The notes: generated by a model not told the origin, from the sequence alone. A stretch of DNA of 64,000 nucleotides from Candidatus Magasanikiibacteriota bacterium (GCA_903893485.1 CAITMK010000004.1:431-64430); one strand, 5' to 3'. Positions 2,163 to 60,964 are shown, counted from the first letter of the stretch. Numbers and translations are program-made.

Positions 2163-4265
2163 TTAGATAGTCTCCGCAACAAAATCATCAAATTCCTGGC
2201 GAAATTCTTTTGATTTAATCATCCAGAGATCATCGAGGTCTTTAAATGGATCGATGAATTGCTCGCTACCCACATTCAATCTGTCATAAGTACTTGATGT
2301 ACCAGGAGCTTCTGTAAACCACTCATCTTGTTGATCTGTGGACACCCCAATCGCTTTTAAATCGTTCTTGTCACGCACCAGATGTGCCAATTGTCGCATC
2401 TGCCCTTCGATTGGCCGTACCTCATTTTTATACGCCTGATAATGACCTGCAATTTCTGCGAGTTTAGCTTTCCATTCTGGATTTGATTTGATCGCGCCAA
2501 AAAATTCTTGCTCAAACGGGTACTTCACCTCGTCTTCAATTGCGGAATATAACCACGTATTATTCAAGGTTGCCACATATCGATAGTCTTTTGCGGTATT
2601 CTCAATGGCTTTATTTGGATCTTGAAATAATTTTGGATGCGTACGACGAATTTCAGCGAGCATGTTCTGGACTGCGGTTCGGTCTTGGTTAAGAATTTCT
2701 GTGTGAGCTTTGAGTACCTTATTACGCTCCGCAAGAAGATCTGCGGTTTTTTGTTTCAGTTCTGTATAATTTTTTGGTTTATTTTTTTCAAATTCAGCGC
2801 TTGCCAATTGCCATCTGAAATTCCGCAAACGACTTTCAGCATCCATTTGCACCTGAGATGCATCAGACTGGATGGCATGAATAGCTTCTAATTTTTCATT
2901 GCCAAAAAATCCGGTAAGAGGTTTCTCACTTATTTTTGCTTCTTCTAGCAATGCTAACTCAAATGCGTGCTTTGCAGCTGTTGCCTTTTTTTGCGCCGCA
3001 CGCGCATCAAACTCCAAAAGAGATTCTTGCGCGGCTGGCGTTTCAGCGCGGGCTTCTGCGCGATAATGCTGAAGAACTTTGGCCTCAATTCGACTTCCAA
3101 CCCCAACATAGGTTGGATCCGTTCGAGCAAAAAGACGTACATGGTCGCGATTCAGATCAGTTAAACTTCGAATTGATTCTGCTTTATAGAATTCACCAGG
3201 TTGAAACTGCACCGGTTTTCGAGGACCTTTTGGCAAGAGTCCTTTCGCAATCAAATCTTGCATGAGTTTATCATCGATTTGCTTTGAGTCACCACTTGCC
3301 AGCGCAAAACTTCTAAGATCTTGATCATATGCGTTCACTTGACTTTCAAGCATTGCGAGACGTGCTTGGTATTGGGCACTCACGCGCACCGCATTAAAAA
3401 TTTCAGATTTAAGTATCGGATTTTTTTCAACATCTTCAATTACATGCGGCGCCACCTGCTCAACCATCACGGCAAATTCAGGATCAGTCATTGATCGTGT
3501 GCCCTTTTTTTTCAGCCATTCTTCATTGTGAGCGCTGCTATATTTTCGTTGAAGTGCAAATAATTTTTGGTTTGGAATATGCCCAGCGTCCCAAAATTCT
3601 GTTGACATCGTATAATCTCTAAATTCCTTTGCCGAATCCAGCAACGCTGCTTTTTCTGCCAAAATTGATTCGCGCGTCAATTCGGTTTCAACGGCACTTT
3701 CCGCTTCTGGATGTTGCGCGGCATTTGCTTCGGCCATGCGCACGGTCGCAGAAATTTGCAGATCCTTAAGCACTTCCGCGTCACCACTTTGCATCGCCGC
3801 ATCCATTTGAGCAACTTCTTCATCAGTAAGTGTCTCAAGCCGCTCTAGTAGAGCTGCTAAATTTTCATGCTCTGCGGCAGCGGTTCGTTTTGCATCAAAC
3901 GCTTCTTTTACACCCGGCACGTGAGCGCCACGCGCTGTTTCGCGCCGCACACCGTGCACTTCCTCTTCGGTGGTAACACCTTCTTGTAGCGCTTCATTCA
4001 ACGTCGGCATTACCTCGCCAACCGCTTCACGAACCTGTGCTTTATGCTGCGCCACCAATTCAGCATGCTGAGCCGCAGTATTTTGAGCAAGCTGATTATA
4101 AGTACTCGCTGACAAATGCAACGCATCGCGAACACGATCGCGAGTTACTGTGGCCTGCTGTTGTTTTGCTTTTGCTTCTTCGGCTGCTGTGGCAGCAGCA
4201 AGCTCAGCAGCCTCTCTTTCTCTTTTTGCGGTTAAACGTTGTTGGATATCTTCTAAGACGCTCAT
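2163..4265 (-). CDS. Large hypothetical alpha-helical/coiled-coil protein (700 aa). It shares an N-terminal motif with the neighbouring 383-aa protein.
   Basis: Long ORF with no recognisable catalytic motifs. N-terminal segment TVTRDRVRDALHLSASTYNQLAQ. Confidence 0.6.
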   Translation of the reverse strand: MSVLEDIQQRLTAKREREAAELAAATAAEEAKAKQQQATVTRDRVRDALHLSASTYNQLAQNTAAQHAELVAQHKAQVREAVGEVMPTLNEALQEGVTTEEEVHGVRRETARGAHVPGVKEAFDAKRTAAAEHENLAALLERLETLTDEEVAQMDAAMQSGDAEVLKDLQISATVRMAEANAAQHPEAESAVETELTRESILAEKAALLDSAKEFRDYTMSTEFWDAGHIPNQKLFALQRKYSSAHNEEWLKKKGTRSMTDPEFAVMVEQVAPHVIEDVEKNPILKSEIFNAVRVSAQYQARLAMLESQVNAYDQDLRSFALASGDSKQIDDKLMQDLIAKGLLPKGPRKPVQFQPGEFYKAESIRSLTDLNRDHVRLFARTDPTYVGVGSRIEAKVLQHYRAEARAETPAAQESLLEFDARAAQKKATAAKHAFELALLEEAKISEKPLTGFFGNEKLEAIHAIQSDASQVQMDAESRLRNFRWQLASAEFEKNKPKNYTELKQKTADLLAERNKVLKAHTEILNQDRTAVQNMLAEIRRTHPKLFQDPNKAIENTAKDYRYVATLNNTWLYSAIEDEVKYPFEQEFFGAIKSNPEWKAKLAEIAGHYQAYKNEVRPIEGQMRQLAHLVRDKNDLKAIGVSTDQQDEWFTEAPGTSSTYDRLNVGSEQFIDPFKDLDDLWMIKSKEFRQEFDDFVAETI

Positions 4266-4283
4266 AGTATATATTGATCATCT

Positions 4284-5435
4284 TTATATTTTCTTTACCA
4301 AATTCTGCTCAACCTCTCTTCTCCATTGACTAATAAACCCAACATCTCGATTATACTGAATGCTTGTAAAATTCTTCGGTTTTAGGATTGCACCCAACCC
4401 ACGATTTGATAGCGATCCAGGATGAGCAAAGTGAGTGTAGTCCAAATTTTCCACCTTTATGATTCCTGAATCTGTCGTGTGAATTTCCCCACCGGGATTT
4501 GATAAATAAAGATCTTGCTTCGGATCAAATCCATTTTCAAATGCAACAATAAGTTTGCCCGACTCTTTCATTCCCTGCTTTATTAACCAAATAAGTTCAA
4601 ACATCAAAGAGCAACTACCTGATGCGGCAGCTGTCTCAAATCGCTGCACAGCCTGCGGCATCACGCCCAACTTCGTAGCAATTTCTACGGCTAATCGTTC
4701 TGCGTTAAGAGGCACTTCCTTAAAACCCTCTCCATTTTTAAAGTGATTCCAATCTACCATATTACATAACTCAACAATTTGAGTGTCTAAATCTTCAAGC
4801 TTCGCTTTAAATTCAATCATCGCACCTGGGTGACTAAAGAGATGGCTGATTTGTCGTTCTTTATTTTTTAAATAAGTCATCTGCAATTCTGACTGTTTTT
4901 CGTATGGACGCACTCCACTAAAAGGCGGTGCAAAGGTTTTTATGGAGAATTCAAAATCAGGATTTTTATATGTTTCAGTATATAATCCATCAACGACGGT
5001 ATTTGTCATTTTATAGTCGCCCGATCGAAGCGCACGTTCAAGTGCGGCTGTTTCCTTCGGAGCCATGAGAGGTAATATTTCTATAGCTCGTCTTATGGTT
5101 TCTTGACGAACCATATCACGTTTCGATTCTGCCAGATTTTTCTTTAGCAACTCAAGCGTAGCATCCTTTGCTGCATGCAAGCCTTGATCGTACGCTTCAT
5201 TATTCAAAGGTTCGCCTTCGTCCAGAGCCCCATTAAACTTTTGACGAAAAGCCTGCGTTGATTCATCGCTTGCATTAAGTAAGGCCGCCTTTCTTTGAGC
5301 ACTCTCCCCCAAAGACTGTGTCAATCGCTCATGAGAAATATGAAGCGCTGCTCTCACATGATCGGCTGATACAGAATTGGTGTTAGTAGGTTGTTGGTTA
5401 TCAAGTGACTCTGACATATTTTTAGTGTTGTTCAA
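4284..5435 (-). CDS. Hypothetical protein (383 aa), possibly a papain-like cysteine peptidase fold (weak).
   Basis: N-terminal SVSADHVRAALHISHERLTQS motif, paralogous to the 700-aa neighbour. C-terminal AASGSCSLMFELIW followed by DYTHFAHPGS resembles a Cys/His catalytic arrangement. Confidence 0.55.
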   Translation of the reverse strand: MNNTKNMSESLDNQQPTNTNSVSADHVRAALHISHERLTQSLGESAQRKAALLNASDESTQAFRQKFNGALDEGEPLNNEAYDQGLHAAKDATLELLKKNLAESKRDMVRQETIRRAIEILPLMAPKETAALERALRSGDYKMTNTVVDGLYTETYKNPDFEFSIKTFAPPFSGVRPYEKQSELQMTYLKNKERQISHLFSHPGAMIEFKAKLEDLDTQIVELCNMVDWNHFKNGEGFKEVPLNAERLAVEIATKLGVMPQAVQRFETAAASGSCSLMFELIWLIKQGMKESGKLIVAFENGFDPKQDLYLSNPGGEIHTTDSGIIKVENLDYTHFAHPGSLSNRGLGAILKPKNFTSIQYNRDVGFISQWRREVEQNLVKKI

Positions 5436-36695: not shown

Positions 36696-37615
36696 AATCC
36701 TTATCAAAAATTCCACTTATTATTGATACTGATCCGGGGCACGATGATGCGCTGGCGATTATGTTACTGATAAAATCCGAGCGCTTCGATATTCAAGCGG
36801 TTACCACGGTTGCAGGAAATACGACCATCCAAAATACAACAAATAATGCACGCTATATTTTAGACCTGCTTCAAAGCAGCATACCATTGTATTCCGGCGC
36901 TGCAGCGCCACTGAGGCAGAAATTAATTTGTGCAAACGTACACGGAGAAAATGGACTTGCGGGCGCGCAGATCACCAAAAAAGAACTGCTAAATAATTTA
37001 GCGGTTACAAAAATAATTGAATTAGTGCGCACCGCACCAAGCAAGGTTTCCCTGCTCGTTATTGGGCCGCAGACAAATATTGCGCTCGCGTTTAAGCAAG
37101 ATCTGGAACTACCGAAATTGATTAAACAAATTGTGATCATGGGTGGCGCCATAGCCGTACCGGGTAATAAAAATGCGGTCGCCGAATTTAATATTTTCGT
37201 TGATCCAGAAGCAGCGGATATCGTATTTCGCGCACCAGTTAAAAAAATCGTTATCCCCCTCGATGTCTGCAATGACATATTTTTAACGCTTGCCGATTTT
37301 CGCCGCCTCAAAAAATCTAAACTCTATCGCCCCATCATGGCAATGATGAAGCATTACATTCAAGGAATTAAAATTTTTGAACGTACGAAAGGCGCCCTCA
37401 TGTATGATCCGCTTGCGGCGTATTATTTATTAAATCCTCGCGCATATGAAACCAAAAAAATGGATGTCCGTATTGAAACTACGAGTGATCTAACTCGTGG
37501 CATGTCCGTGGCTGATCGACGAAATTGGGGCGAGAAAAAATATAACGCTCACGTGGTGACAAAAATTAATCGCGATCAATTTGTTGAAGACTTTATTAAC
37601 ACGCTTAACACATAA
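36692..37615 (+). CDS. Ribonucleoside hydrolase (IU-NH family).
   Basis: IIDTDPGHDDALAI aspartate cluster motif. Confidence 0.85.
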   Translation: MKSLSKIPLIIDTDPGHDDALAIMLLIKSERFDIQAVTTVAGNTTIQNTTNNARYILDLLQSSIPLYSGAAAPLRQKLICANVHGENGLAGAQITKKELLNNLAVTKIIELVRTAPSKVSLLVIGPQTNIALAFKQDLELPKLIKQIVIMGGAIAVPGNKNAVAEFNIFVDPEAADIVFRAPVKKIVIPLDVCNDIFLTLADFRRLKKSKLYRPIMAMMKHYIQGIKIFERTKGALMYDPLAAYYLLNPRAYETKKMDVRIETTSDLTRGMSVADRRNWGEKKYNAHVVTKINRDQFVEDFINTLNT

Positions 37616-37616
37616 T

Positions 37617-38345
37617 ATGAATACCATTTTATGTATTGGCGCTACGCACGGTGATGAACCAATTGGCGTATGCGCACTTCAGATACTTGAAAAGCGAGTC
37701 GATAATTTTGATTGGATTATTGGAAATGAAAAAGCATATGAACAGAATACCCGTTGTTTTGAGGGTGATCTAAATCGAAGCGCCCCGGGCATCTTTGGCG
37801 CACCAAATTATGCATCACGTCGCGCGGCAGAAATAATTGCACTGGCACAAAATTACAAATACACTATTGATTTGCATGGCACTACCGCCGGGACAGGTAT
37901 TTTTACCATTATTAGCAGAGCCACCGATAAAAATATCACGCTCGCTATGCAACTTGGGATTAAAAATATTATCATATGGCCGGCAATCAACGCTTCGCTC
38001 AAAGGACCACTGAGTGAATACACTCCCTGCGGATTAGAAATTGAATGCGGACCAAAAGACTCACTGGAAATTCAAAATGAATTAATCGATATTTTAGAGC
38101 GCTTCATAAAACTGCAAATGCAGCCTGAAATAAATATGCCGGTGGCCAAACCGAACTGCTTTTCCTTTTATGAGGTATACAGCGAACTACGAAAGCCTGA
38201 AATCGCTCCACAGCTTTCAGAATTTTGTGAAATCACCACCGATAATGAAACTTTTTTTCCACTTCTTATCGGACGGTATCAAGATATCACCTGTTACAAA
38301 ATGAAGCGAGTAGAATATGTCTCAATAAAAATACAACGCGATTAA
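37617..38345 (+). CDS. Succinylglutamate desuccinylase/aspartoacylase (AstE/AspA) family zinc hydrolase.
   Basis: ATHGDEPIG, DLNR, IDLHGT motifs. Confidence 0.65.
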   Translation: MNTILCIGATHGDEPIGVCALQILEKRVDNFDWIIGNEKAYEQNTRCFEGDLNRSAPGIFGAPNYASRRAAEIIALAQNYKYTIDLHGTTAGTGIFTIISRATDKNITLAMQLGIKNIIIWPAINASLKGPLSEYTPCGLEIECGPKDSLEIQNELIDILERFIKLQMQPEINMPVAKPNCFSFYEVYSELRKPEIAPQLSEFCEITTDNETFFPLLIGRYQDITCYKMKRVEYVSIKIQRD

Positions 38346-40243
38346 GCTACTGCAGCCTCTTTTTGGGCCTGCCGCATTGCATTTAATTCAAGCATCCGCA
38401 TTTTAAGTGGGTCATCGCTGCTTTGTTTTAGTTTTTTCTTAAATGATGTGGTAAGCGCAGCAATCGCTTCCTCTTTTGTGGTAGCGCCTCGCATACCATC
38501 GACAAATTTATTCATGACATCATGATTCTTTGTAATTTTTTCAACTTCAATTTCAGACAGGTCTGCACCATAACCTCTTTCAGCTACCAATTGTACAAAA
38601 GTATCCTCATCAAGAGTATTCACCGGGTGTTGAAAAAAAATAGCAACAATCTTTTCAATTAGTTTTTTATTTTTTTCTCTCTGTTCATCTTCTTTTTTTA
38701 GCATTTCAGCTTTGATTGCCGCGTATTTGTCGGCAACTGGACCACCGTCGACAACGATTTTATCAATAAGTTTTTGAGCGGCTAATTCTATTGATTCCTC
38801 AGGAAATATTTTTTTCAAACGTTCAACAATTTTTGTTCGTAATTCAATAAGCTCCGGATCTTTCAAAAAGATATCAGATGCCAAATCTTCGACGCCAATC
38901 ATTTTCTTCGCAAATAACTGCAGCTCGGTGTCATCCAACAGTGCAGCATCTTTTATAGTAAATAGTTTTTTTAAAGCATCCGCTGACCCCGCTTGGTGAG
39001 CAACAAATTCCTGTAACCCCTTTCTAAGGCCTTCCAGATACAAAACGTATTCAGGATCTTCACCCACTACACCTTTATTTTCTGTTAACAACCCTGCCAA
39101 GCGAATTCTCTCTTGACCATGCCCCGCACCCACGTCTGTTCTGGCAGAAAATCGATCAGCACTCAGAACTTTTACATCTGGAGCATCGATAATCTTACCA
39201 ATCTGCGATAATCGCCTTCCGAATTCAGGATCTTCGCCGCCGCCAATTTTAGGAACCCCACCAACTAATGCAGCTTCGAATGCTCGGCTCGCCATATTTG
39301 CACCGGAAAAAGAAACCGCTTTTGTCTCTGGCTTTTCAACTTTATCCGATACACCATATAAATATAATTCGAGAACTTTTCTGTAATTATATTGCAACTC
39401 CGAATAGTTTGAAATATTTTCAAACAAATCTCCTTGCTCCGTTTGCTCAAAATCTAATCCACCTGCAATGCCAACAATAGCAGGGTTATCATGAAATACC
39501 TTTATTACATTAAAAACATAATTTTCATCAAGTTTTGTATCCGCGTCAGTCTGCCCAATAATACCATTTGATTTTTTTTGTTCGTAAAAACGAGCCGCTG
39601 CTTCTGCAACACCACGATTTCTCGCACCACCCACATTTGCTTCGCCTGGTGGTAATTCATTTCCTGGTGTAGCTTTATCGATTGCGTAAATTTTTATTCC
39701 CTGCGTTTTAATTTTATCGATAATTTTTCTTTCAGCATCGCTTAAATCTGGAGCGTCACTTCCCCCATTAATAAATTCAATGATACGCAAACAAATTTGA
39801 TTTTCTTCAAGCGCGGTGTGATAGTGCGCCAGCGATCTTTCGTAATCTGCATCACTCATGTTTTGCTTTCTTTGTGGCACACCAGCCGGATTATTAATCA
39901 CAAAAATCGCCTCAAATGATTGAGGTGCGACAGGTGTTTGATTCGCAAGCGACTCGAGTGGACGAAAAATTGCATCTCGCTCCCCGTATGCAGGGATTAC
40001 AATTGAGACTTCACACAATGCGTCCATCGGCGTCTGAATTCGATGTTCACTTGCGGGCAAATTTTCTTGTAGATACCCCTCGATCTTCTGGTTCATCTGG
40101 TCACGTTGTCTATCTACATTTCTATCTACCTGCAGCGCCGCTTGTACACGCACACTATCGACTGGCGCACTTTGATTCAGCACTGGCAGTTCTGCGTCCA
40201 CACGGGCCGCTTCGTTTGTAATTATTTTTGGATCCCCTGTCAT
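38342..40243 (-). CDS. Large hypothetical protein with an internal GT-A fold glycosyltransferase (GT2-like) domain and a C-terminal helical region.
   Basis: N-terminal PVDSVRVQAALQV motif shared with the 700- and 383-aa proteins. SIVIPAYGERD ... QTDADTKLD (DxD) GT-A signature. Confidence 0.6.
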   Translation of the reverse strand: MTGDPKIITNEAARVDAELPVLNQSAPVDSVRVQAALQVDRNVDRQRDQMNQKIEGYLQENLPASEHRIQTPMDALCEVSIVIPAYGERDAIFRPLESLANQTPVAPQSFEAIFVINNPAGVPQRKQNMSDADYERSLAHYHTALEENQICLRIIEFINGGSDAPDLSDAERKIIDKIKTQGIKIYAIDKATPGNELPPGEANVGGARNRGVAEAAARFYEQKKSNGIIGQTDADTKLDENYVFNVIKVFHDNPAIVGIAGGLDFEQTEQGDLFENISNYSELQYNYRKVLELYLYGVSDKVEKPETKAVSFSGANMASRAFEAALVGGVPKIGGGEDPEFGRRLSQIGKIIDAPDVKVLSADRFSARTDVGAGHGQERIRLAGLLTENKGVVGEDPEYVLYLEGLRKGLQEFVAHQAGSADALKKLFTIKDAALLDDTELQLFAKKMIGVEDLASDIFLKDPELIELRTKIVERLKKIFPEESIELAAQKLIDKIVVDGGPVADKYAAIKAEMLKKEDEQREKNKKLIEKIVAIFFQHPVNTLDEDTFVQLVAERGYGADLSEIEVEKITKNHDVMNKFVDGMRGATTKEEAIAALTTSFKKKLKQSSDDPLKMRMLELNAMRQAQKEAAVA

Positions 40244-40246
40244 AAA

Positions 40247-40696
40247 TTATGGATATACCTGAGCCAATATCGAAATCAATTTCACCACCTTATCTTTATC
40301 CGATCCAATAACCACAATATATGATTCTTTTGTGGAGATACTTGCTTTTGTTCTGCCCGATACATCTTGGACTTGCATTTGACCATTATTAAACGTCCAA
40401 CTTGGATCAAATTTTTTACCAGCCGAGATATTTATTACATTCGCGATATCTCCCCAGCCAGTTGCATTAAGCACCGTTTCATTTGCTCTAAAATATTGTT
40501 CTGGCGGCTGAAATTTTCCTCCTTGCTGATTAATGATGCTTACGTTTGTAAATCCTGCATCAACGACAAGCGCCTTCATATCTTCCATTGATTTAGGCAT
40601 TTGATAGGTCGCCGCGTGAACCTGTGTGCGTAGAACAAATAGCGCTATGCCAAAAATAATAAGTGGTAGAGAGCTATATTTTAATAATTTTTGCAT
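40247..40696 (-). CDS. Secreted hypothetical protein (signal peptide).
   Basis: 149 aa. N-terminal MQKLLKYSSLPLIIFGIALFVLRTQVHAATYQ. Confidence 0.45.
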   Translation of the reverse strand: MQKLLKYSSLPLIIFGIALFVLRTQVHAATYQMPKSMEDMKALVVDAGFTNVSIINQQGGKFQPPEQYFRANETVLNATGWGDIANVINISAGKKFDPSWTFNNGQMQVQDVSGRTKASISTKESYIVVIGSDKDKVVKLISILAQVYP

Positions 40697-40749
40697 AAAA
40701 TAATCACTTGTTTGTAGATTAACGCTATTATAGCGTTAATCATGAGCAA

Positions 40750-41550
40750 TCACGCTATAAACTTTTTAGCACTTTTTGCTAATCGCAAGGCGAGCATTTC
40801 ATCGCCATTTAAAATGATTGCGAGGCCAGGATATAATTTCTTAACGACATCAACACCGTCGCGCTGATAAAAAGTTACCAATCTGCCACGATCTTCTCTT
40901 TCTACTGGTATCAGACCTTCTTGAGTAAGACTATCATAATCTAATTCGTTTGCACCCGCAAAATAAAGCTCTCCACTTTTACAAACCCCAAAACCATGCC
41001 CCATAATTGCCATATGCAAGAATGCATCTGACTCTGAAAATGGCACATCATCTTTTAAAACAAACTTTATTGCAGCGTCAGCGTGAATAGATTTCGTGGC
41101 TTCAAGTAAAACCCCCTCACCCCCGACAAACGCAGCGGTCAATTCATTTTTAATCCGTTCAACATCGGCTAAATAACTTTTTGCATCGAGATCATGATCA
41201 CTCACCTCATGACATGCGCGTACAAGCAGCATCCATAACTGCACCTCTGGACGTTCCCCCTCACCAAGATCCTGAGCTCGGCTCCAAATAGCACCAACAT
41301 GCAATTCTTTAGTGAGTGTGTCTACCGCATCCATAGATACACCAGCACTAGAAGCAATTTTTTCAACAATCTGACGAACCTCTTTTACCGCAAGCATGCC
41401 AGCGGGATCAAGACCGCGCACAATACGCCCCTCAAGACCGCGAAGTCCATATGCCCGAAGCTGCTCCCCATGCGCTTCGATTTGTTTTGCCTCTTGTTCT
41501 TGGGTAGAATGATTTTGAACTATTGTTGCCCCCATCATCGATTCTGACAT
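40750..41550 (-). CDS. Hypothetical protein (266 aa), first gene of the 266/149/633 operon.
   Basis: No recognisable domain. SMDAVDTLTKELHV loosely resembles the shared N-terminal motif. Confidence 0.45.
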   Translation of the reverse strand: MSESMMGATIVQNHSTQEQEAKQIEAHGEQLRAYGLRGLEGRIVRGLDPAGMLAVKEVRQIVEKIASSAGVSMDAVDTLTKELHVGAIWSRAQDLGEGERPEVQLWMLLVRACHEVSDHDLDAKSYLADVERIKNELTAAFVGGEGVLLEATKSIHADAAIKFVLKDDVPFSESDAFLHMAIMGHGFGVCKSGELYFAGANELDYDSLTQEGLIPVEREDRGRLVTFYQRDGVDVVKKLYPGLAIILNGDEMLALRLAKSAKKFIA

Positions 41551-41843
41551 AAAATATGCGATTGATTATTTTCATCTATTATAGCAAATCTGACACAGAT
41601 TTTTAGCACAATACCAAAGTTTTTTCAACTTATTCAATAGATCGGCCCCATAGGACCATCAAAAATAATAAGGCCCATAATTGCGTCGCGTAGCGAATGA
41701 CCTTCTTTTGCCTTTATGCCATAGCCTGCGCGCCAATTATATGGGCTTATTTTTTTATCTTCCTGCAATAAAATAAAACAAGTATGCGAATAAACTAGTC
41801 ATAAAAAATGATACTTTTCTTAGTATACACGTATTATCCATAA

Positions 41844-41867
41844 ACAAAAAACAGGGCTCTCGCCCTG
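41844..41867 (-). terminator. Rho-independent terminator downstream of the RT fragment.
   Basis: cagggcgagagccctg hairpin, then U6 on the minus strand. T-run also on the top strand (bidirectional). Confidence 0.65.
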
Positions 41868-41952
41868 ATTTTTGGTGGCACACCGTAGTGGAGGAAGTCA
41901 GGAAAAATTGCGTGAATGAAATGTATACGCACACAGAGGTAAAAATGCTTAA

Positions 41953-42537
41953 TTAATTTTTATCCGAAAGCAGCCAATCCAAATTCATTAGTTCCCTCTG
42001 AACTTTCAAAGTGTTCCCATGTCGCAACAATCCTCGATATGACTGTATTCGACCCTCAACACCCTGAACCAGTATCCGCCGAAACATTCGCTGTTTTGAC
42101 GCTCTACGCAATATGCGATGTTTTGGAAAATTAACCCATCCTAAAAAATCAACGCCCAAAACGATTGATTGAAGATAAATTTTATCTGGGTGAATTACCA
42201 GCCCAAGCTCCGACTGCAAAAAATTATCCATCAACCGAAGTTGTCCCTCTAGCCATGCACGGTCATGTGACATCACAACGAAATCATCGGCGTATCGAAT
42301 ATAAAACCGCGCCTTCAGTTTATGCTTCACAAACTGATCGAACACATTCATATACACGTTGGTGAATAGCTGTGATGTTAAGTTACCAAGTGGTAAACCT
42401 ACACCCGCAGATGTCTCAAAACTTTTTATAATATGTTCCAGCAGATCCATGATCCGTTCATCAGGAATATAGCACCTTAAAATCTTAATGAGCCGTGCGT
42501 GATCGATGTTTGCGAAAAACTTCCGAATATCACATTT
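41953..42537 (-). pseudogene. 5'-truncated reverse transcriptase with DGR-type motif 4.
   Basis: Minus frame reads VLKCDIRKFFANIDH (motif 3), GLPLGNLTSQLFTNVYMNVFD ([ILV]GxxxSQ is DGR-specific), IRYADDFVV (motif 5), FLGW (motif 7). No motifs 1-2 in any frame upstream. The ORF-track N-terminal 45 aa are an out-of-frame readthrough of the neighbouring GC-rich gene. Confidence 0.7.
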
Positions 42538-43177
42538 CAAAACCGGGCTGTTTCCATAAAGAGTTGCGAACGGCGAGAAACCGATAGTTGCCGTTCCAGC
42601 TGTTGCTCCACCAGAACAGGTCCAGCTTCCGCTCGTCACCGTTCCGGTAGAGGTACGGGGCACGGCGGTCGTCACCGTGACCCCAGATCGAACCCAAGCC
42701 CATGATCGCGTACTTGCGCTGTTCGTCGGGATTTTTCACGGCGTAGGCCAGGAGTTCGCGCAACGTCGCAGGACGGAAGCCATCTTTGTCCATCGCCGAA
42801 ACGACGTCCTTGGACGACATGTCCTTGCCGAAGTGGTAGAGCTTGACCTGGAGGTTCTGCTCGCCCGTCTCATGCGCCTGGTTCGGGAAGTTCTTCTCGA
42901 CGATGTCGTCGTACTTCCAGTCGAACGCGGCGGCCGTGATGGCGTCGATCAGCTTGAGCGCGTAATCGACCGAAAGCACTTCGCAGCCGTCGGGAATGGT
43001 GATCCCGCGCTCAGCCATGATCTGCTTGGCGATCTCAGTGGCCAGCTTCTTGTCCTTGAGGATGCGCAGGATGTCTTCATCGTTGCCGCCCATGTCGAGC
43101 ACGGCGTTGACGAGCACCTTCACGACCTCGAACATTTTGCCAAAGTTCTTGAGCAATTCACTTACAGGACGAGCCAT
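42530..43177 (-). CDS. Hypothetical protein (215 aa), GC-rich islet 4, occupying the position of the RT 5' half.
   Basis: GAGAGG SD. GC about 58% from about 42545 to 43270 with an abrupt drop at both edges. The + strand ORF 42677..43348 is a shadow. Confidence 0.5.
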   Translation of the reverse strand: MARPVSELLKNFGKMFEVVKVLVNAVLDMGGNDEDILRILKDKKLATEIAKQIMAERGITIPDGCEVLSVDYALKLIDAITAAAFDWKYDDIVEKNFPNQAHETGEQNLQVKLYHFGKDMSSKDVVSAMDKDGFRPATLRELLAYAVKNPDEQRKYAIMGLGSIWGHGDDRRAPYLYRNGDERKLDLFWWSNSWNGNYRFLAVRNSLWKQPGFEM

Positions 43178-43341
43178 TTTGAGCCTCTCACTTCTGTGTG
43201 GCCTACCGCTTATCCCGAGTCACCCGACCCAAGACCTACGGCTTACCAACTGCCAACCGATTTGGCTGCAGTAATTAAATTTGCTCTGTTGAGAGAAAAC
43301 CTAGTTATTGCGGCTAAATTAGGTACTGTTATTGACTATCA

Positions 43342-43370
43342 TTTATAGCACGATTTGGTGATTTTGTCAA
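43342..43370 (-). promoter_or_regulatory. Sigma70-like promoter TTGACA-17-TATAAA (minus strand).
   Basis: RC reads ttgaca aaatcaccaaatcgtgc tataaa. It lies in AT-rich DNA between tRNA-Trp and the GC-rich cassette, about 145-nt leader. Confidence 0.5.
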
Positions 43371-43414
43371 GGTGATGGCTCAAAATTTGGCTAATTAGTG
43401 AGTGAAAATCAAAA

Positions 43415-43438
43415 ACCCCACTTTCGTGGGGGTCTCGA
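43415..43438 (-). terminator. Rho-independent terminator after tRNA-Trp.
   Basis: RC reads cccccacgaaagtggggg followed by ttttt. Confidence 0.6.
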
Positions 43439-43439
43439 G

Positions 43440-43510
43440 CACGGGATGAGGGAATCGAACCCCCGCCAAAGGTTTTGGAGACCTTCGTTCTACCATTAAA
43501 CTAATCCCGC
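43440..43510 (-). tRNA. tRNA-Trp (anticodon CCA).
   Basis: RC folds as GCGGGAT-TA-GTTT/AATGGTA/GAAC-G-AAGGT/CTCCAAA/ACCTT-TGGC-GGGGG/TTCGATT/CCCTC-ATCCCGT-G. 3' CCA is not encoded. Confidence 0.85.
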
Positions 43511-43515
43511 ATACT

Positions 43516-44289
43516 TTATTTTCCTGACTTTGCTTGCAACATCGCAACGCGAAGTGTCACACTACTGTACACGATGAGCGCAATTGTTTCAATAAGATCT
43601 GCACCACCATATCCACCAACAGACAAAATGGTCCAAAGAAGCAATGGCCCCGTCATTGCTGCCATGTTGAGCCGAAATGCCTGGGCAAATCGAATCGGTT
43701 GTGCCTTTGCCATTTTATGTGCAAACACCACAAGCAAACTCCACAGCATCACTACCACCAAAGACAATGCCAGCTTCCATGCGCACATAACCACAAATAG
43801 TACCACGGTAATACCCGCTGCCAATTTCCCCTGGTATGAGCCCCACACAGCTTTAACACCGCTGCCAGTGAGTGCAAAATCTTGGTTACCGCCCCACAGC
43901 ATTTGCTGTGAATTTTGCGGAGTCACCAGCTGAATCGCGGTGCGTGAAACAGAAATACCTTGCGTCACTGCACCCAACGTGCTCGTACTGGTATCAATTT
44001 TTAACGCGAAATCCTTATCTTGAAACGCAAATGGCTGTGCAATTCCCGCAATGGTCAAATCATCGCCTTTTTTGGTTGCACTAATACCATCGGGAATTTT
44101 GTGCACGTAATATCCAACTTGGTTAAGGCCACCAGCAATTGCCGGCGCCATGGTTGCCACCACGATTGCGACCGCCAAAATATGCGTCTGAAACCAAAAA
44201 GACCATGGAGTCTTGTACTCCGGTCTCAGTAGTAGCGCAAGGGATTCAACGTCACTCGCCCATTTCCACAGCCGACGAAAGAACTCCAT
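43516..44289 (-). CDS. Hypothetical polytopic membrane protein.
   Basis: About 257 aa from the MEFFRRLWKW start, which avoids overlap with rpmG. 6-7 TM helices. Confidence 0.35.
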   Translation of the reverse strand: MEFFRRLWKWASDVESLALLLRPEYKTPWSFWFQTHILAVAIVVATMAPAIAGGLNQVGYYVHKIPDGISATKKGDDLTIAGIAQPFAFQDKDFALKIDTSTSTLGAVTQGISVSRTAIQLVTPQNSQQMLWGGNQDFALTGSGVKAVWGSYQGKLAAGITVVLFVVMCAWKLALSLVVVMLWSLLVVFAHKMAKAQPIRFAQAFRLNMAAMTGPLLLWTILSVGGYGGADLIETIALIVYSSVTLRVAMLQAKSGK

Positions 44290-53941: not shown

Positions 53942-55378
53942 TTACCATTGTACCGAAAAATTTTGATCAGTTTTGAGCGTGCCCTGCCAATCGTACGCAC
54001 CATCACCAAAATGTGCGGGCGCTTCTGGTGGCGTTGCCTGTCCTAGGGTTGTACCAAAATCATCGTGTATCGTCAAATCAAATTGTGGCAAACCAAGTTG
54101 CTTTTGAACAAACAACCTATAGTGATGTGCGGCAATTGCCTGTAAAACCTCTGGCGCTGGGGTAAAACGAAATGTTACGGTGTGCGAAGTGCCCGGCTCG
54201 ACCGAAACAAACGCACCAACTGACAAAAATCCATCTTCATGTTCCTGCCCAAACTCGCCAGGCTTTGTTATTTTGTCGCCCGACATCGCACCATCGCCGC
54301 CTAAAAAGGTTGCGTTGCCCGGCACGAACACACGCAAATACGTTCGGTAACGCGTAGTGCGATAATCAAAGCTGCCCGTGTGTTTATATGTTACCGCAAC
54401 CGATTCTTCCCACGCACCAGTTTTATTTTGAGCAAGTGAAACTACCGCGGAGCGATCAATTACACGATCTGTTTTAAGCGCGGCCAAATTCGCATCAACA
54501 ATTTGCAACTTATCGGGCGTTCCTGGCAGCATGCGGCCAGACCATTGCAACGCATCGAGCGAGCGCTGCACTGCTGGATCAATATCATATATCATGACAT
54601 GACGATTTTTAATAAGTTCAAATCCATCTTGCAAAAGCGCACCCCAACTTGTTGGCGAAATTACTGCCATGCGCTGCGCAAGTACGCCGGCCAACTTTCC
54701 CAAAATTTCTTTTCGCTTTTCTGTTGGAATTTGTTTGTGCGTAAAATCAACTTCAACCGAATATTCAAGTAAATCTGAAATCGTATCTGAGGTAAATGTA
54801 ACGTCATCAATCGTAATTGGCCCGGTATATTTCATGAGCGTTTGCAAAACCTCTGGTGTGATTGCAACAACCGTATGCACATCGGCTGCCTGCGCACCAC
54901 CTTCTGCGGCATAAAATTGCAACGCACGTTGCGCATCTGTTACAAAATCTGGCGACCAATTTGAATCACGAAAAAACCAACGCGTTGATTGTAAATATGT
55001 TTGTAATGCCTGTGGTGGTGCAACTTCAAAACTTCCCGGCGCTGCATCATCAATTTTTTCAGTGCCTTCGATTTTCATTTTTGTTGGCACACCATGATCA
55101 AATGTCACTAATCCGTACGAACCAATAAATCCACCGCCCGGACGCAATTCAGTATTATTTAAAAACAAAAATAAAACCGTATTCGGATGATCAATGCCAA
55201 GCACCCGCGGCACGACTCCTCCAACGGGCAGTGCTGAAGGATTTGTTTTCTCAATTACGGAATCAATGATGCGGGCCGCAAACACGCTGCTGTGCGTAAC
55301 TGCCCACAAGGAGCCCGCACCAGTAGCCCCAACAATTACGGCCAAGCCAAGTGCGATAAAGAGCGATTTTTTTTTCAT
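53942..55378 (-). CDS. DUF4012 domain secreted/membrane-anchored protein.
   Basis: N-terminal anchor. RPGGGFIGSYG motif characteristic of DUF4012. Confidence 0.6.
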   Translation of the reverse strand: MKKKSLFIALGLAVIVGATGAGSLWAVTHSSVFAARIIDSVIEKTNPSALPVGGVVPRVLGIDHPNTVLFLFLNNTELRPGGGFIGSYGLVTFDHGVPTKMKIEGTEKIDDAAPGSFEVAPPQALQTYLQSTRWFFRDSNWSPDFVTDAQRALQFYAAEGGAQAADVHTVVAITPEVLQTLMKYTGPITIDDVTFTSDTISDLLEYSVEVDFTHKQIPTEKRKEILGKLAGVLAQRMAVISPTSWGALLQDGFELIKNRHVMIYDIDPAVQRSLDALQWSGRMLPGTPDKLQIVDANLAALKTDRVIDRSAVVSLAQNKTGAWEESVAVTYKHTGSFDYRTTRYRTYLRVFVPGNATFLGGDGAMSGDKITKPGEFGQEHEDGFLSVGAFVSVEPGTSHTVTFRFTPAPEVLQAIAAHHYRLFVQKQLGLPQFDLTIHDDFGTTLGQATPPEAPAHFGDGAYDWQGTLKTDQNFSVQW

Positions 55379-55379
55379 A

Positions 55380-56909
55380 TTATTTGGTAGCGATGGATGC
55401 TAAATCTTCGGCATGCATACGCTTCTTCTGTGATACATTAAACCCTAAATAGCGGCCGAACAGCAAGCGCGTCGTTGCGTCGAGCGCTGGAAGTGCTGAG
55501 AAAAAAATCATGGACACGGGCACTAAAATCCACTGCAAAAACATAAACAACCACGCGTGCTTTTTTGCATGTCGTGGCGGCGGCGGCAATAATTTGGTGG
55601 ATAAAATAATACTCAGTACAATGCCACTCATGGAAATAATCATGAGCCATTCCAAAATATGCGGCGTGTTTTGAAATAACACGGTGCGGCGTACTTCATC
55701 GCCCGCAACGAGTAGCGGTAAACGACCAAAAACTAAAATGAAAATTGAGGTGGTGCACCAAGAAAATTTACCTTCCCACTGCACGAAAATTTTATGCACG
55801 CGTTCCCAAAATGGAATCTCATGATGTTTTGGAAAATGCCACAGCATAAATGGAATATGCTCCGCGCCCCATGCCCAGCGACGTTGCTGTTTGTACAAAT
55901 TCACCACCGATTTTTTGAACGAACGATCCGCAACCGTATCCATGGAAACTGGAATATACATTGGTACCACTTCATAGTTGCCGCCATATTTTAAATAGCA
56001 CTGCAACATGATACGCGAATCTTCACTCACAATATTTTTTTGCCAAAAACCAACATCAACCAGCGCCTCAAAACTCATGCTGTGCGATGAAAATGTACCC
56101 AAAAGTTCTGGTCGCGCAAACGCAAAAAGTAAATAAAACGTGGTACCAAACGCCATAATGCGCAGCGGCGCCGCAGATTCCCAAATATTATTATTGTACA
56201 GCGCAACCGGCTGAAACGATGCGTGTGTTGGATTTGGATGCGTGGCATACATGTATGTGAGACATGCAAAATACGATGGATGAATAATCGTATCGATATC
56301 GAACGCGGACACAATAATATTTTTGTACACAATCCCGCGTGCATCAAACCATTTTTGAACTTCATGCCCCGCGTAATGCAAATTCGACCCCTTGCCTGGA
56401 ATTTCGCCAGGTAAATTTTTTGGATGCACCGTAAGCACAAAACCAAAAAAATGTTTTTCGTATTCTTTTTGAATGTGTTCTGCGAACGTGTGAAAATGTT
56501 CCGCCTGACGCTCTTCGCCCGCAAGCACCACGACCATGCGATTTGATGGAAATTTAGAACTCAATAATGCATCAAGTGTAGTACGAACCACTTCTTCATC
56601 TTCATTATAGATCGGCAAAAAAATACAGTGCACGTAATTTTCGGTGGCCGTGCCCAAACTTTTTACGCGCGCCATCCAATCGGTGCGACGAGAAACTTCA
56701 AATTCGCGCCATGATGAGAGCAAGAAAAAAATATAATACACCACGCGGAATACCCAATATAAATCGAATAAAAGAATCGCGTAGATCACCCAGAGCGGAC
56801 GCACAAAACTACAAATTGTAGCACCAATTAAAGATCCCCACACCAAAAGACCTGGAAGCATTTCGTACAAACGATATTTTTGATAGTTGGTCAATCGAAA
56901 CGAAATCAT
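55380..56909 (-). CDS. Processive GT2 glycosyltransferase (cellulose/chitin-synthase-like) membrane protein.
   Basis: DxD motifs and QQRRWAWG (QxxRW). N- and C-terminal TM clusters. Confidence 0.75.
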   Translation of the reverse strand: MISFRLTNYQKYRLYEMLPGLLVWGSLIGATICSFVRPLWVIYAILLFDLYWVFRVVYYIFFLLSSWREFEVSRRTDWMARVKSLGTATENYVHCIFLPIYNEDEEVVRTTLDALLSSKFPSNRMVVVLAGEERQAEHFHTFAEHIQKEYEKHFFGFVLTVHPKNLPGEIPGKGSNLHYAGHEVQKWFDARGIVYKNIIVSAFDIDTIIHPSYFACLTYMYATHPNPTHASFQPVALYNNNIWESAAPLRIMAFGTTFYLLFAFARPELLGTFSSHSMSFEALVDVGFWQKNIVSEDSRIMLQCYLKYGGNYEVVPMYIPVSMDTVADRSFKKSVVNLYKQQRRWAWGAEHIPFMLWHFPKHHEIPFWERVHKIFVQWEGKFSWCTTSIFILVFGRLPLLVAGDEVRRTVLFQNTPHILEWLMIISMSGIVLSIILSTKLLPPPPRHAKKHAWLFMFLQWILVPVSMIFFSALPALDATTRLLFGRYLGFNVSQKKRMHAEDLASIATK

Positions 56910-60199: not shown

Positions 60200-60964
60200 T
60201 CATTTAACCGATTCCATCGACTTGTCTTTATTATTGTATAATTTTCTAATCAACTTTCCAATTTCCATTCTCATTTCATTTGTAATCCCAACTGTTGACT
60301 GGAGATTGTTGCTCCATGCATAAATCTTAATTATTTTGGTTGATAGTGACAAATCAAATTCATAAATGTCACAAGTCTTTTTTGCAACCAGTAGTTTTTC
60401 ATGCCTGATCGGTGTCGGCTTAAAATAGTTTTTAAAAATCTCTGTTGCTTCTTTGCCATTTATTAACAAAATTTCAACCCTTTCTTCTATAAGCTGCCTC
60501 TCCAAAAAGATAATATTACTTTGGATAAGCTGTTTTTTTGTTAAATAATCTAAACTTCTCCAAATTGGATCTGTCGCCCATTGAATAATATCTAAATGGC
60601 AGGCCGTACCTGTATAATAAGAAACAGAAAAACCTTTAAGAATATTGTTTTCTAATTGGTCGAACCATTTTTTATACGGATTATTTTGGAAATACTTTAA
60701 ACAAGTGTCAAATACTTTTTCAGCTTGTGCCTGTGTTAAACTTGATAAACTGTTTGCATTAAGAGAACTTAATGTTTCAAGCCTTCTTTGTTTTTCGACT
60801 AATTCTTTGCCGTCTTTTTGAAACTCATTTTTGCTTGGATTTATTCCAAGCGTTGCAACGGTTGCGTTTTTAATATTTCCAAAAAACACAATCGGAGTCG
60901 ACCCACCTACAATAAATGAATTGTTTGCATTTGTCCTAATTCTTAATTCTGTGATTTTTTTCAT
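60200..60964 (-). CDS. AT-rich hypothetical protein (254 aa), possible UDG-superfamily fold.
   Basis: About 33% GC. FFGNIKNATVATLGINPSKNEFQKDGKELV aligns to UDG family-4/MUG motif A (vFGEGnpdAklmivGEgPGeeED.tG.PFv, GINPG in MUG). Bracketed by inverted repeat copies A and C. Confidence 0.45.
   Translation of the reverse strand: MKKITELRIRTNANNSFIVGGSTPIVFFGNIKNATVATLGINPSKNEFQKDGKELVEKQRRLETLSSLNANSLSSLTQAQAEKVFDTCLKYFQNNPYKKWFDQLENNILKGFSVSYYTGTACHLDIIQWATDPIWRSLDYLTKKQLIQSNIIFLERQLIEERVEILLINGKEATEIFKNYFKPTPIRHEKLLVAKKTCDIYEFDLSLSTKIIKIYAWSNNLQSTVGITNEMRMEIGKLIRKLYNNKDKSMESVK

Follow-up and report, generated by a model that had tools for sequence, protein, structure and literature searches.

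A soluble GT-A glycosyltransferase of a mostly patescibacterial family, with a possible role in the cell envelope

The 633-aa protein encoded in the window (the whole 64-kb stretch of DNA that was analysed) is a member of a small, mostly Patescibacteria family of soluble GT-A/GT2 glycosyltransferases. We regard this glycosyltransferase (GT) as an uncharacterised, fairly ordinary family-2 enzyme that more likely serves envelope building than acts as a toxin. With moderate confidence, we propose that it glycosylates an envelope precursor on the cytoplasmic side, and that the GT gene and the two genes upstream of it are a local juxtaposition rather than a functional module.

The features of the locus are listed in Table 1. 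The sequence-only reading had described an operon of three ORFs next to a reverse transcriptase (RT) remnant; all three ORFs were found on the minus strand with lengths of 633, 149 and 266 aa, and the RVT_1 match lies directly upstream of them, as described. The gap between the 266-aa and 149-aa genes is 53 nt, and the 149-aa stop codon is separated from the GT start codon by 3 nt. The stops of the GT gene and the convergent AstE/AspA-like gene overlap by 4 bp.

Table 1. Coordinates of the features of the GT locus in the window
Feature	Position	Strand	Basis or remark
AstE/AspA-like gene	37581..38345		convergent to GT gene
633-aa GT gene	38342..40243	-	ORF, homologues, AlphaFold2 model
GT all-helical C-terminal domain, residues 397-633 (237 aa)	38345..39055	-	model, alignment, Pfam, hydropathy
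GT GGED motif G335-D338, putative catalytic base	39230..39241	-	conservation; aligns with K4CP
GT DxD motif D233-A-D235, putative metal/nucleotide-sugar site	39539..39547	-	conservation; aligns with DAD of 6p61
GT-A (GT2) catalytic domain, residues 79-390	39074..40009	-	alignment, model, Foldseek, Pfam, profile searches
GT N-terminal region, residues 1-78	40010..40243	-	alignment and model
VQAALQVD, GT residues 33-40	40124..40147	-	resembles VRAALHIS (383-aa ORF) and VRDALHLS (700-aa ORF)
149-aa protein gene, candidate signal peptide or N-terminal membrane anchor	40247..40696	-	ORF, hydropathy
Perfect palindrome ATTAACGCTATAATAGCGTTAAT	40718..40740	-	encloses second GCTATAATAG (40725..40734)
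266-aa protein gene, conserved uncharacterised family	40750..41550	-	ORF, 61 homologues
Promoter-like element TGCTATAATAG	41576..41586	-	end of -10 hexamer lies 27 nt before 266-aa start codon
Terminator-like hairpin AATCAGGGCGAGAGCCCTGTTTT	41848..41870	-	downstream of RT fragment
RT fragment	41953..42675		RVT_1, E 1.4e-15; directly upstream of the three ORFs

The AlphaFold2 model of the GT (mean pLDDT 87.8) bears out a GT2-like core followed by a helical tail, the tail being 237 aa long against the roughly 250 residues claimed earlier. In the N-terminal region, residues 1-24 are predicted to be disordered and residues 28-61 form a long helix in the model. This region is 6 to 141 residues long across orthologues where it could be delimited, and a family-conserved LPxxEERIxxPMDxxCE precedes the first beta-strand of the core. 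The catalytic domain is interrupted by a helical insertion some 65 residues long (approximately residues 119-183) and contains the GT2 signatures PAYGER, NVGGARNRG, D233-x-D235 and GGED; the two catalytic motifs quoted in the sequence-only reading were located at residues 80-90 (SIVIPAYGERD) and 231-239 (QTDADTKLD). The catalytic DxD, for which that reading had proposed a check, is present and strongly conserved: in a narrow (A1) and a broad (A4) alignment alike, D233 never varies and D235 is kept in at least 90% of the sequences. E337 and D338 of the GGED motif are invariant in A1, and E88, N117/N118, D189, R208, R218, D233, D235, D338, R364, S366 and R368 are invariant or nearly so in the narrow and broad alignments. 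The acidic DD/DxS that usually follows strand beta-2 in GT2 enzymes is replaced by N117-N118, which, as judged from the alignments, is a deviation specific to this family. The C-terminal helical domain has a length conserved across the family and no invariant residue; Pfam gave no match for it, and none of its segments is hydrophobic enough for a membrane helix. The Kyte-Doolittle 19-residue maximum was below 1.5 in 32 of the 33 aligned GT family members and 1.68 in the other, a borderline value, and no signal peptide or hydrophobic segment of membrane-helix length was found among the 33.

A Foldseek search of the model against the PDB returned 159 matches at E <= 0.001. The 50 listed were all GT2-type GT-A enzymes and included the Chlorella and Xenopus hyaluronan synthases, the chondroitin polymerase K4CP, chitin synthases, BcsA, TarP, 6p61 and PcManGT. 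Each of the 33 aligned family members matched PF00535 (GT2) with an E-value of 0.01 or lower, the best being 2.4e-13; for the window GT the score was 22.8 bits (threshold, 23.3) and covered residues 80-118 only. In profile searches against PDB sequences, PAYGER, DAD and GGEDxEFGxRL aligned with 6p61, 5tze and K4CP. The family comprises 183 representatives at E <= 1e-30 among the 1.84 billion searched, about 70 of them full length. Named members among the 70 GT homologues belong to the Patescibacteria group, and a genome scan found the GT in 17 species-level genomes, most labelled as Patescibacteria lineages, with distant relatives in Smithella/Syntrophaceae. Two other assignments were rejected. 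A polyprenol-phosphate GT of the DPM1/GtrB/ArnC type, the housekeeping class that the sequence-only reading had set against its own proposal, was not assigned by the profile search, in which dolichol-phosphate mannose synthase 5mlz reached only E 0.68, and the GT has no hydrophobic helix that could serve as the C-terminal membrane anchor of that class. A processive membrane GT2 synthase was discarded because the protein has no transmembrane segment and carries R364-F-S-A-R368 where QxxRW is expected.

Considering these features, the GT would be cytoplasmic or peripherally membrane-associated, and most likely metal-dependent and inverting. D233-x-D235 would hold the divalent cation and the nucleotide-sugar diphosphate, D189 and N117/N118 may touch the nucleotide, and E337/D338 of the GGED motif would deprotonate the acceptor hydroxyl. 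The conserved basic residues R89, K190, R208, R210, R218, R320, R364 and R368 suggest that the acceptor is anionic and phosphate-bearing. The poorly conserved helical tail would probably serve oligomerisation or docking to a membrane or partner, not catalysis. The substrate is most likely an envelope precursor at the cytoplasmic face, and candidate acceptors would be lipid-linked glycans, intermediates of the peptidoglycan or teichoic-acid type, and glycolipids.

The cell-envelope role is hinted at by gene neighbourhoods, given that orthologues lie beside murC, murD, murF, ftsW-murG or mraZ-ftsI in about five independent lineages. The murD gene is directly upstream of the GT at one locus (L004) and 3 kb downstream at another (L020), and murF overlaps the start of the GT at a third (L018). 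The order ftsW-murG-murC-PMT_2-SpoU-x-GT-ATPase-murB was seen at L046/L007 and L010, mraZ-rsmH-ftsI-Mur ligase-x-GT at L049, and at L047 the GT closes a cluster of glycosyltransferase genes. A Mur ligase gene lies within 7 kb of the GT in about 5 of 18 independent lineages against roughly 0.7 expected, an expectation derived from assumed gene counts and clustering and not a measured background. The majority of orthologue loci have no peptidoglycan gene nearby, and none was found within 6 kb of the window GT. A further caveat is that peptidoglycan genes in these small genomes have many unrelated housekeeping neighbours.

The loci without envelope genes, including those with SMC (L005), exonuclease VII (L006) or NUDIX and DEAD helicase (L050) genes, would also suit a cytoplasmic enzyme with no envelope link, whose substrate would be a soluble metabolite, a protein or RNA. 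The solubility of the GT by hydropathy fits such an enzyme, as do the nucleoside hydrolase and HAD phosphatase genes that are nearest in the window and the miaA-like tRNA-modification gene (identified by reading the sequence, not by family search) that adjoins the GT of a Smithella relative (L028). However, no such partner recurs across loci, and Mur ligase genes are the sole recurrent neighbours found beyond close relatives, which makes an enzyme of this kind unlikely, though worth bearing in mind.

We consider it rather improbable that the GT makes glycolipids by adding a sugar to diacylglycerol or to a different scavenged membrane lipid, with the tail as a membrane-association domain. The GT does belong to GT2 and lacks transmembrane helices, its long helical tail is lysine-rich and looks amphipathic, and two family members gave weak GT21 matches. 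The model for such a function is the soluble or peripheral GT2 glycolipid synthase of Mycoplasma, and an enzyme of this general kind is described in PMC3849446. On the other hand, the searches revealed no direct resemblance to any known glycolipid synthase, the neighbours are peptidoglycan genes and not lipid genes, and the tail sequence lacks a conserved basic or hydrophobic membrane-binding patch.

Whether the GT belongs to a module with its two neighbours was assessed from their sequences and from the regions between them. The only hydrophobic stretch of the 149-aa protein is N-terminal (residues 4-22; Kyte-Doolittle mean over 19 residues, 2.06) and is followed by VHA/AT; it would suit either a signal peptide or a membrane anchor. 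The hydrophobic N-terminus behind the earlier label of signal-peptide protein is real, though it may also be such an anchor. This protein had no match in Pfam, NCBIfam, PHROG, PADLOC or the PDB. The 266-aa protein has 61 homologues with 38-62% identity, the few named members all coming from Patescibacteria lineages, and its family is a stand-alone gene in three other genomes; its predicted structure (pLDDT 93.4) found no match in fold searches of the PDB and BFVD. When both proteins were searched by tblastn across 41 loci, about 20 of them from other genomes and with a full-length GT orthologue, only contigs of the same genome were returned, and neither gene lies beside the GT at any other locus examined.

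An extended -10 near 41585 had been proposed as the operon promoter. The element TGCTATAAT is indeed present at 41586..41578 on the minus strand, but the single TGNTATAAT in 64 kb does not exceed chance, at least one being found in 87 of 100 shuffles. The window has exactly two copies of the promoter-like 10-mer GCTATAATAG, where 0.05 would be expected; in the second, the end of the -10 hexamer lies 29 nt before the 149-aa start codon. The intergenic region between the 266-aa and 149-aa genes folds with -15.5 kcal/mol and has no T-run behind the hairpin. The palindrome ATTAACGCTATAATAGCGTTAAT probably serves as a second promoter or as an operator, if not as both. The 67%-identical closest relative has conserved the hairpin AATCAGGGCGAGAGCCCTGTTTT, which is found there 72 nt before the GT start with neither extra gene in between, whereas in the window it is 1.6 kb from the GT start and the 149-aa and 266-aa genes intervene.

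Support for a three-gene operon is weak. The genes are co-directional, and since the 149-aa gene is 3 nt from the GT, it is plausible that these two share a transcript; the 53-nt gap before the 149-aa gene holds the second GCTATAATAG within the palindrome, and the gene order is not conserved in related genomes. The 149-aa protein is probably a secreted, lineage-specific neighbour that is co-transcribed with the GT, and the 3-nt gap leaves room for a functional tie between them. The 266-aa gene would be independent, widely conserved and driven by its own promoter.

The GT had further been said to share an N-terminal motif with other proteins of the window. We assumed this motif to be V[RQ]xAL[HQ][LIVM], the sole candidate found. 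A scan of all six-frame segments, about 71,000 aa for the window, gave exactly three occurrences of the pattern, a count that overstates the support because the pattern was defined after the instances were seen: VQAALQV in the GT (residues 33-39), VRAALHI in a 383-aa ORF (4284..5435) and VRDALHL in a 700-aa ORF (2163..4265). All three lie inside the first 55 residues of their proteins, and the 383-aa and 700-aa proteins are orphans without Pfam matches, next to SPFH and YidC genes. In alignment-shuffle comparisons, the observed score was reached in 40 of 500 shuffles for the GT and the 383-aa protein, 125 of 500 for the GT and the 700-aa protein, and 10 of 500 for the 383-aa and the 700-aa protein; the three regions showed no similarity at the DNA level. 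Among GT orthologues, a clear motif was seen only in the closest, P0002 (RVRAALHM), and most have none. What is left of the claim is an eight-residue resemblance of marginal significance. It is very unlikely that a [DS]xVRxALHxS-like helix motif is a lineage-specific targeting or docking peptide that sends the GT and both orphans to one destination. If it were, that destination would be an export route, a membrane microdomain or the host-cell interface, and the GT would be a glycosylating factor of an episymbiont, either delivered or acting at the surface.

The sequence-only reading had compared the domain arrangement with that of glycosylating toxins or effectors, and not with that of cell-wall enzymes; this likeness was not supported. 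Such a protein would be secreted and host-directed, with the N-terminal motif as a shared export or targeting signal and the helical tail binding the target. The Patescibacteria studied in culture are described as attached to other microbes (PMC11623550), which makes effectors plausible in principle. The short motif common to three otherwise unrelated proteins could be read in this way, as could the location of the GT gene, which follows a putative secreted-protein gene at 3 nt and has a retroelement remnant nearby. A GT-A core with DxD and helical additions is also found in the large clostridial, Legionella and Photorhabdus toxins. However, glycosylating toxins act with retention and do not have the GGED motif, which marks the catalytic base in inverting GT2/GT7-type enzymes. 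They also have delivery domains or secretion signals, whereas hydropathy revealed no Sec-type signal or hydrophobic segment in the GT, though a non-classical signal is conceivable. No toxin glycosyltransferase of the large clostridial toxin, Lgt, SetA or NleB/SseK type is among the 50 fold matches listed, no toxin-type match was obtained in Pfam, NCBIfam or PADLOC, no phage homologue was found, and the GC and GC3 of the GT gene are inside the range of the window (z about -1). With orthologues in housekeeping or cell-wall contexts and the motif marginal and missing from most of them, a toxin role is highly improbable.

Among known systems, the best Foldseek matches were the membrane GT2 synthases, namely Chlorella virus hyaluronan synthase, chitin synthases and BcsA (E 3e-7 to 5e-6). 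Their acidic series resembles D189, D233-x-D235 and E337-D338 of the GT, but TM-scores are low (0.25-0.35), the GT has no transmembrane channel, and QxxRW is absent as such, R364-F-S-A-R368 standing at a comparable position. The wall teichoic acid glycosyltransferases TarP (6h1j and others; fold match, E about 6e-6) and TarS (5tze; profile match, E 7e-4) are, like the GT, soluble GT2 GT-A enzymes with a C-terminal non-catalytic domain. They act on an anionic cell-envelope polymer. Sequence similarity to them is confined to the first beta-alpha-beta unit, and their C-terminal domains mediate trimerisation and are not known to form long helical bundles; teichoic acids are not known from these bacteria. 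K4CP (PDB 2z86/2z87), with the beta-1,4-galactosyltransferase-type GGED enzymes, shares the soluble GT-A fold and DxD motif. It is among the best fold matches listed (E 8e-7; sequence identity about 14%), and the GT segment F-x-G-x-N...GGEDxEFGxRL matches residues about 270-314 of K4CP position by position, GGED falling on its GGEDNEFGYRL. K4CP polymerises chondroitin with two tandem GT-A domains, whereas the GT has a single one, to which it adds a family-specific N-terminal helix, the helical insertion and the helical tail.

The sequence-only reading had described an operon of three genes encoding the 633-aa GT2-type glycosyltransferase (GT), a small signal-peptide protein and a 266-aa protein. 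The three minus-strand ORFs are present as described, with products of 633, 149 and 266 aa (Table), and in the 149-aa protein the only hydrophobic stretch lies at the N-terminus, ahead of VHA/AT, which would fit a signal peptide or an N-terminal membrane anchor. As a conserved module, the operon did not hold. The 149-aa and 266-aa genes were not found at the GT loci of other genomes: a tblastn survey of 41 loci, about 20 of which belong to other genomes and hold a full-length GT orthologue, matched them in same-genome contigs only, and the gene neighbourhoods of GT orthologues vary between loci. On the other side, GT and a convergent AstE/AspA-like gene (37581..38345) share 4 bp at their stop codons (38342..38345), which leaves no space for an intervening terminator. 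A recent horizontal origin of the three genes was considered and rejected, since their GC and GC3, lowish at z about -1 to -1.6, lie within the range of the window.

Positions of the three genes, the structural parts of GT, and the genes found near GT orthologues at other loci (L-numbers)
Feature	Position	Strand	Basis or context
GT, 633 aa	38342..40243	-	ORF
149-aa protein	40247..40696	-	ORF
266-aa protein	40750..41550	-	ORF
RT fragment (RVT_1 reverse transcriptase remnant)	41953..42675		upstream of the three genes
GT disordered N-terminus	residues 1-24		AlphaFold2 model
GT long helix	residues 28-61		AlphaFold2 model
GT-A core of GT	about residues 79-390		AlphaFold2 model
Helical insertion within GT-A core	about residues 119-183		AlphaFold2 model
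All-helical tail of GT, 237 residues	residues 397-633		AlphaFold2 model
L004			murD directly upstream of GT
L007, L010			murC within ftsW-murG-murC-PMT_2-SpoU-x-GT-ATPase-murB
L018			murF overlaps GT start
L020			murD 3 kb downstream of GT
L047			GT closes a run of glycosyltransferase genes
L048			UDP-sugar dehydrogenase and GlmS genes near GT
L049			mraZ-rsmH-ftsI-Mur ligase-x-GT

The extended -10 element proposed as the operon promoter, TGCTATAAT, is found at 41586..41578 (-), and its single occurrence in 64 kb is at chance level (at least one match in 87 of 100 shuffles). The window contains exactly two copies of a promoter-like 10-mer, GCTATAATAG, with 0.05 expected. From the end of its -10 hexamer to the start codon downstream, the distance is 27 nt for the 266-aa gene in the first copy and 29 nt for the 149-aa gene in the second. 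Given that the 10-mer stands before both genes, the likeliest layout would be two transcription units, one with the 266-aa gene and one with the 149-aa gene and GT. The second copy is enclosed by a perfect 23-nt palindrome, ATTAACGCTATAATAGCGTTAAT (40718..40740, minus strand), between the 266-aa and 149-aa genes, which spans a -10-like hexamer and could be an operator covering a promoter.

The only sequence conserved upstream of GT both here and at L045, the locus of the closest homologue (P0002, 67% identity), is a hairpin. At L045 it reads AATCAGGGTGAGAGCCCTGTTTT and ends 72 nt upstream of the GT start codon; the window copy (41848..41870, minus strand) is one base off L045 55..77 and lies 1.6 kb upstream of GT, from which the 266-aa and 149-aa genes separate it. 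The shared hairpin at differing distances indicates that these two genes were inserted here or lost in the P0002 lineage. The hairpin is GC-rich, has GAGA as its loop and is followed by a T-run. A common repeated terminator was rejected as its identity, because the window has it only once and the locus of the closest relative is the one other place where it was found.

The 266-aa protein has 61 homologues (38-62% identity), of which the few that are named come from Vogelbacteria, Gracilibacteria or unclassified bacteria, and in three other genomes its gene stands alone with no GT nearby. In its very confident model (pLDDT 93.4), the N-terminal half is helical and the C-terminal half beta-rich; nothing significant was matched in PDB (the best hit, a DHH-type phosphatase, had E 0.08) or BFVD, nor was there a match in Pfam or NCBIfam, and PHROGs and PADLOC matched none of the three proteins. 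It is a conserved protein, from Patescibacteria wherever the source names an organism, with an unmatched fold class. For the 149-aa protein, no match was found in PDB and no relative in viral contigs.

Elsewhere in the window, a 215-aa ORF (42530..43177, minus strand) overlaps the start of the RT-fragment ORF and stands out by a GC content of 0.81 at third codon positions (z = 4.6 relative to the remaining window genes). At its C-terminus, WWSNSWNGNYRFLAVRN resembles a variable region as found in targets of diversity-generating retroelements; no template/variable repeats of at least 30 nt were found around the RT fragment in 41500..43600. A 254-aa ORF without a Pfam match (60200..60964, minus strand) deviates in the other direction (GC 0.31, z = -3.0). 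The Rfam scan of the window returned four tRNAs only.

GT had also been said to share an N-terminal motif with other proteins. The sole candidate, V[RQ]xAL[HQ][LIVM], is a pattern chosen after the fact; it occurs three times in about 71,000 residues of the six-frame translation, each time within the first 55 residues, in GT, a 383-aa ORF (4284..5435) and a 700-aa ORF (2163..4265). When the GT N-terminus was compared with those of 110 other ORFs, the 383-aa and 700-aa ORFs scored best. BLAST with this N-terminus found no significant match among all ORFs of the window, none of the pairwise alignment scores among the three carriers was convincing, and their DNA is not similar. P0002 carries RVRAALHM, which suggests a real motif within the shallow clade of GT and P0002. 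Most GT orthologues have no such region, and a subgroup with long N-termini has ERLxEIDxEL in its place; as a family, GT is not characterised by the motif. The 700-aa and 383-aa ORFs are adjacent minus-strand orphans with a common D[RH]VR[DA]ALH[LI]S near their N-termini, placed between hrcA-grpE-dnaK and SPFH/YidC genes; neither matches Pfam, and no homologues of the 383-aa protein were detected.

A word-indexed search found 70 GT homologues, typically of 550-700 aa, and the organism names on them all belong to the Patescibacteria group (Uhrbacteria, Microgenomates, "Patescibacteria group bacterium"). Exhaustive HMMER searching of 1.84 billion cluster representatives yielded 183 proteins at E <= 1e-30, of which about 70 extend over the full length with the tail, and 1241 at E <= 1e-10; the family is therefore small and distinct within the GT2 superfamily. 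A species-level scan with one genome each, which relies on exact peptide patterns and so undercounts the family, placed it in 17 species-level genomes, most of them named as Patescibacteria lineages (Uhr-, Morani-, Portnoy-, Kerfeld-, Staskawicz-, Peregrini- and Paceibacteria). Smithella/Syntrophaceae encode shorter relatives, 24-28% identical (L024-L039), such as the 474-aa relative of the catalytic domain at L028 5914..7338, which retain the PAYAERD, NN, DADT, GED and SAR motifs. The L028 gene follows one that reads like miaA, as judged from its sequence and not by family search. The only close relative in the metagenome scan was the 2.1-kb P0002 contig, tblastn of 50,697 phage records gave no match, and our literature search found no paper on the family. 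Among longer homologues, P0030 (923 aa) has a precomputed PF01636 match, P0056 reaches 1096 aa, and P0027 also matches the tRNA-synthetase-type families PF00587 and PF03129; these may reflect genuine fusions or errors in gene calling.

The GT-A/GT2 core and helical tail assigned to GT from its sequence are borne out by fold and profile matches and by an AlphaFold2 model built from 33 homologues (mean pLDDT 87.8, pTM 0.80). The quoted motifs SIVIPAYGERD and QTDADTKLD correspond to residues 80-90 and 231-239, respectively. The alignment shows the canonical GT2 signatures VVIPAYGER...LxSLxxQ, NVGGARNRGxAEA, D233-A-D235, FSGANMASRAFE...GGEDPEFGxRL and DRFSARTxxxAGHGQ, and its invariant columns all fall within residues 84-376, with none in the tail. 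With distant relatives added, E88, N118, N148, D233, G261, G329 and R364 are still invariant, and P84, N117, D189, R208, R218, D235, D338, S366 and R368 are conserved in at least 90%. The DxD and GGED motifs indicate, on established GT-A knowledge, a predicted metal-dependent inverting mechanism. PF00535 is matched by all 33 aligned members; taken by itself, the window protein falls just under the Pfam GT2 threshold. The window holds a second GT2 gene (53942..56909, minus strand), a membrane-type Glyco_trans_2_3 gene of 509 aa beside a DUF4012 gene; it is unrelated to GT.

The suggestion that GT resembles glycosylating toxins or effectors received no support, and what evidence there is leans against it. 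Foldseek of the model against PDB gave 159 matches at E <= 0.001; the 50 listed comprise hyaluronan synthases, chondroitin polymerase K4CP, chitin synthases, BcsA, TarP, 6p61, PcManGT and a fucosyltransferase, and no glycosylating toxin is among them. GT very probably belongs with GT2-type enzymes and lacks any toxin character. Nothing in these findings is evidence for a new kind of system; GT adds a new, uncharacterised member to an enzyme class that is already known and very large.

Neighbour clustering over about 20 orthologue loci showed Mur ligases to be the one recurrent neighbour beyond close relatives, and NCBIfam identified them as genuine peptidoglycan-precursor enzymes (Table). A Mur ligase lies within 7 kb of GT in about 5 of 18 independent lineages, against a rough expectation of about 0.7 that assumes four ligase genes, grouped into two or three clusters, per genome of about 1 Mb and is not a measured background. 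At the window locus, GT has no Mur-ligase or peptidoglycan neighbour within 6 kb. Because of these neighbours and many conserved basic residues, the best-supported role of GT is a cytoplasmic step in cell-envelope glycan assembly, to which we give an even chance. If this is true, the family would mark an envelope-glycan modification special to some Patescibacteria, whose surfaces mediate host-cell attachment and, to our knowledge, have hardly been studied by biochemistry. Its small size, solubility and confident model make the family workable for expression and for donor and acceptor screening.

A single-sequence search of PDB sequences with GT gave nothing useful, and in profile searches its motifs align with the GT2 structures 6p61, 5tze and K4CP, the GGEDNEFGYRL of K4CP aligning with the GGED motif. 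No clear hydrophobic segment of membrane-helix strength was found in the 33 aligned members (Kyte-Doolittle 19-residue maximum below 1.5 in 32 and 1.68 in one), supporting that the enzyme is soluble or peripheral, whereas its best structural matches are not. Ordinary GT2 enzymes have an acidic DD/DxS after strand beta-2, where the GT family has an invariant NN; this replacement, the N-terminal helix, the helical insertion and the 237-residue helical tail are the unusual additions of GT.
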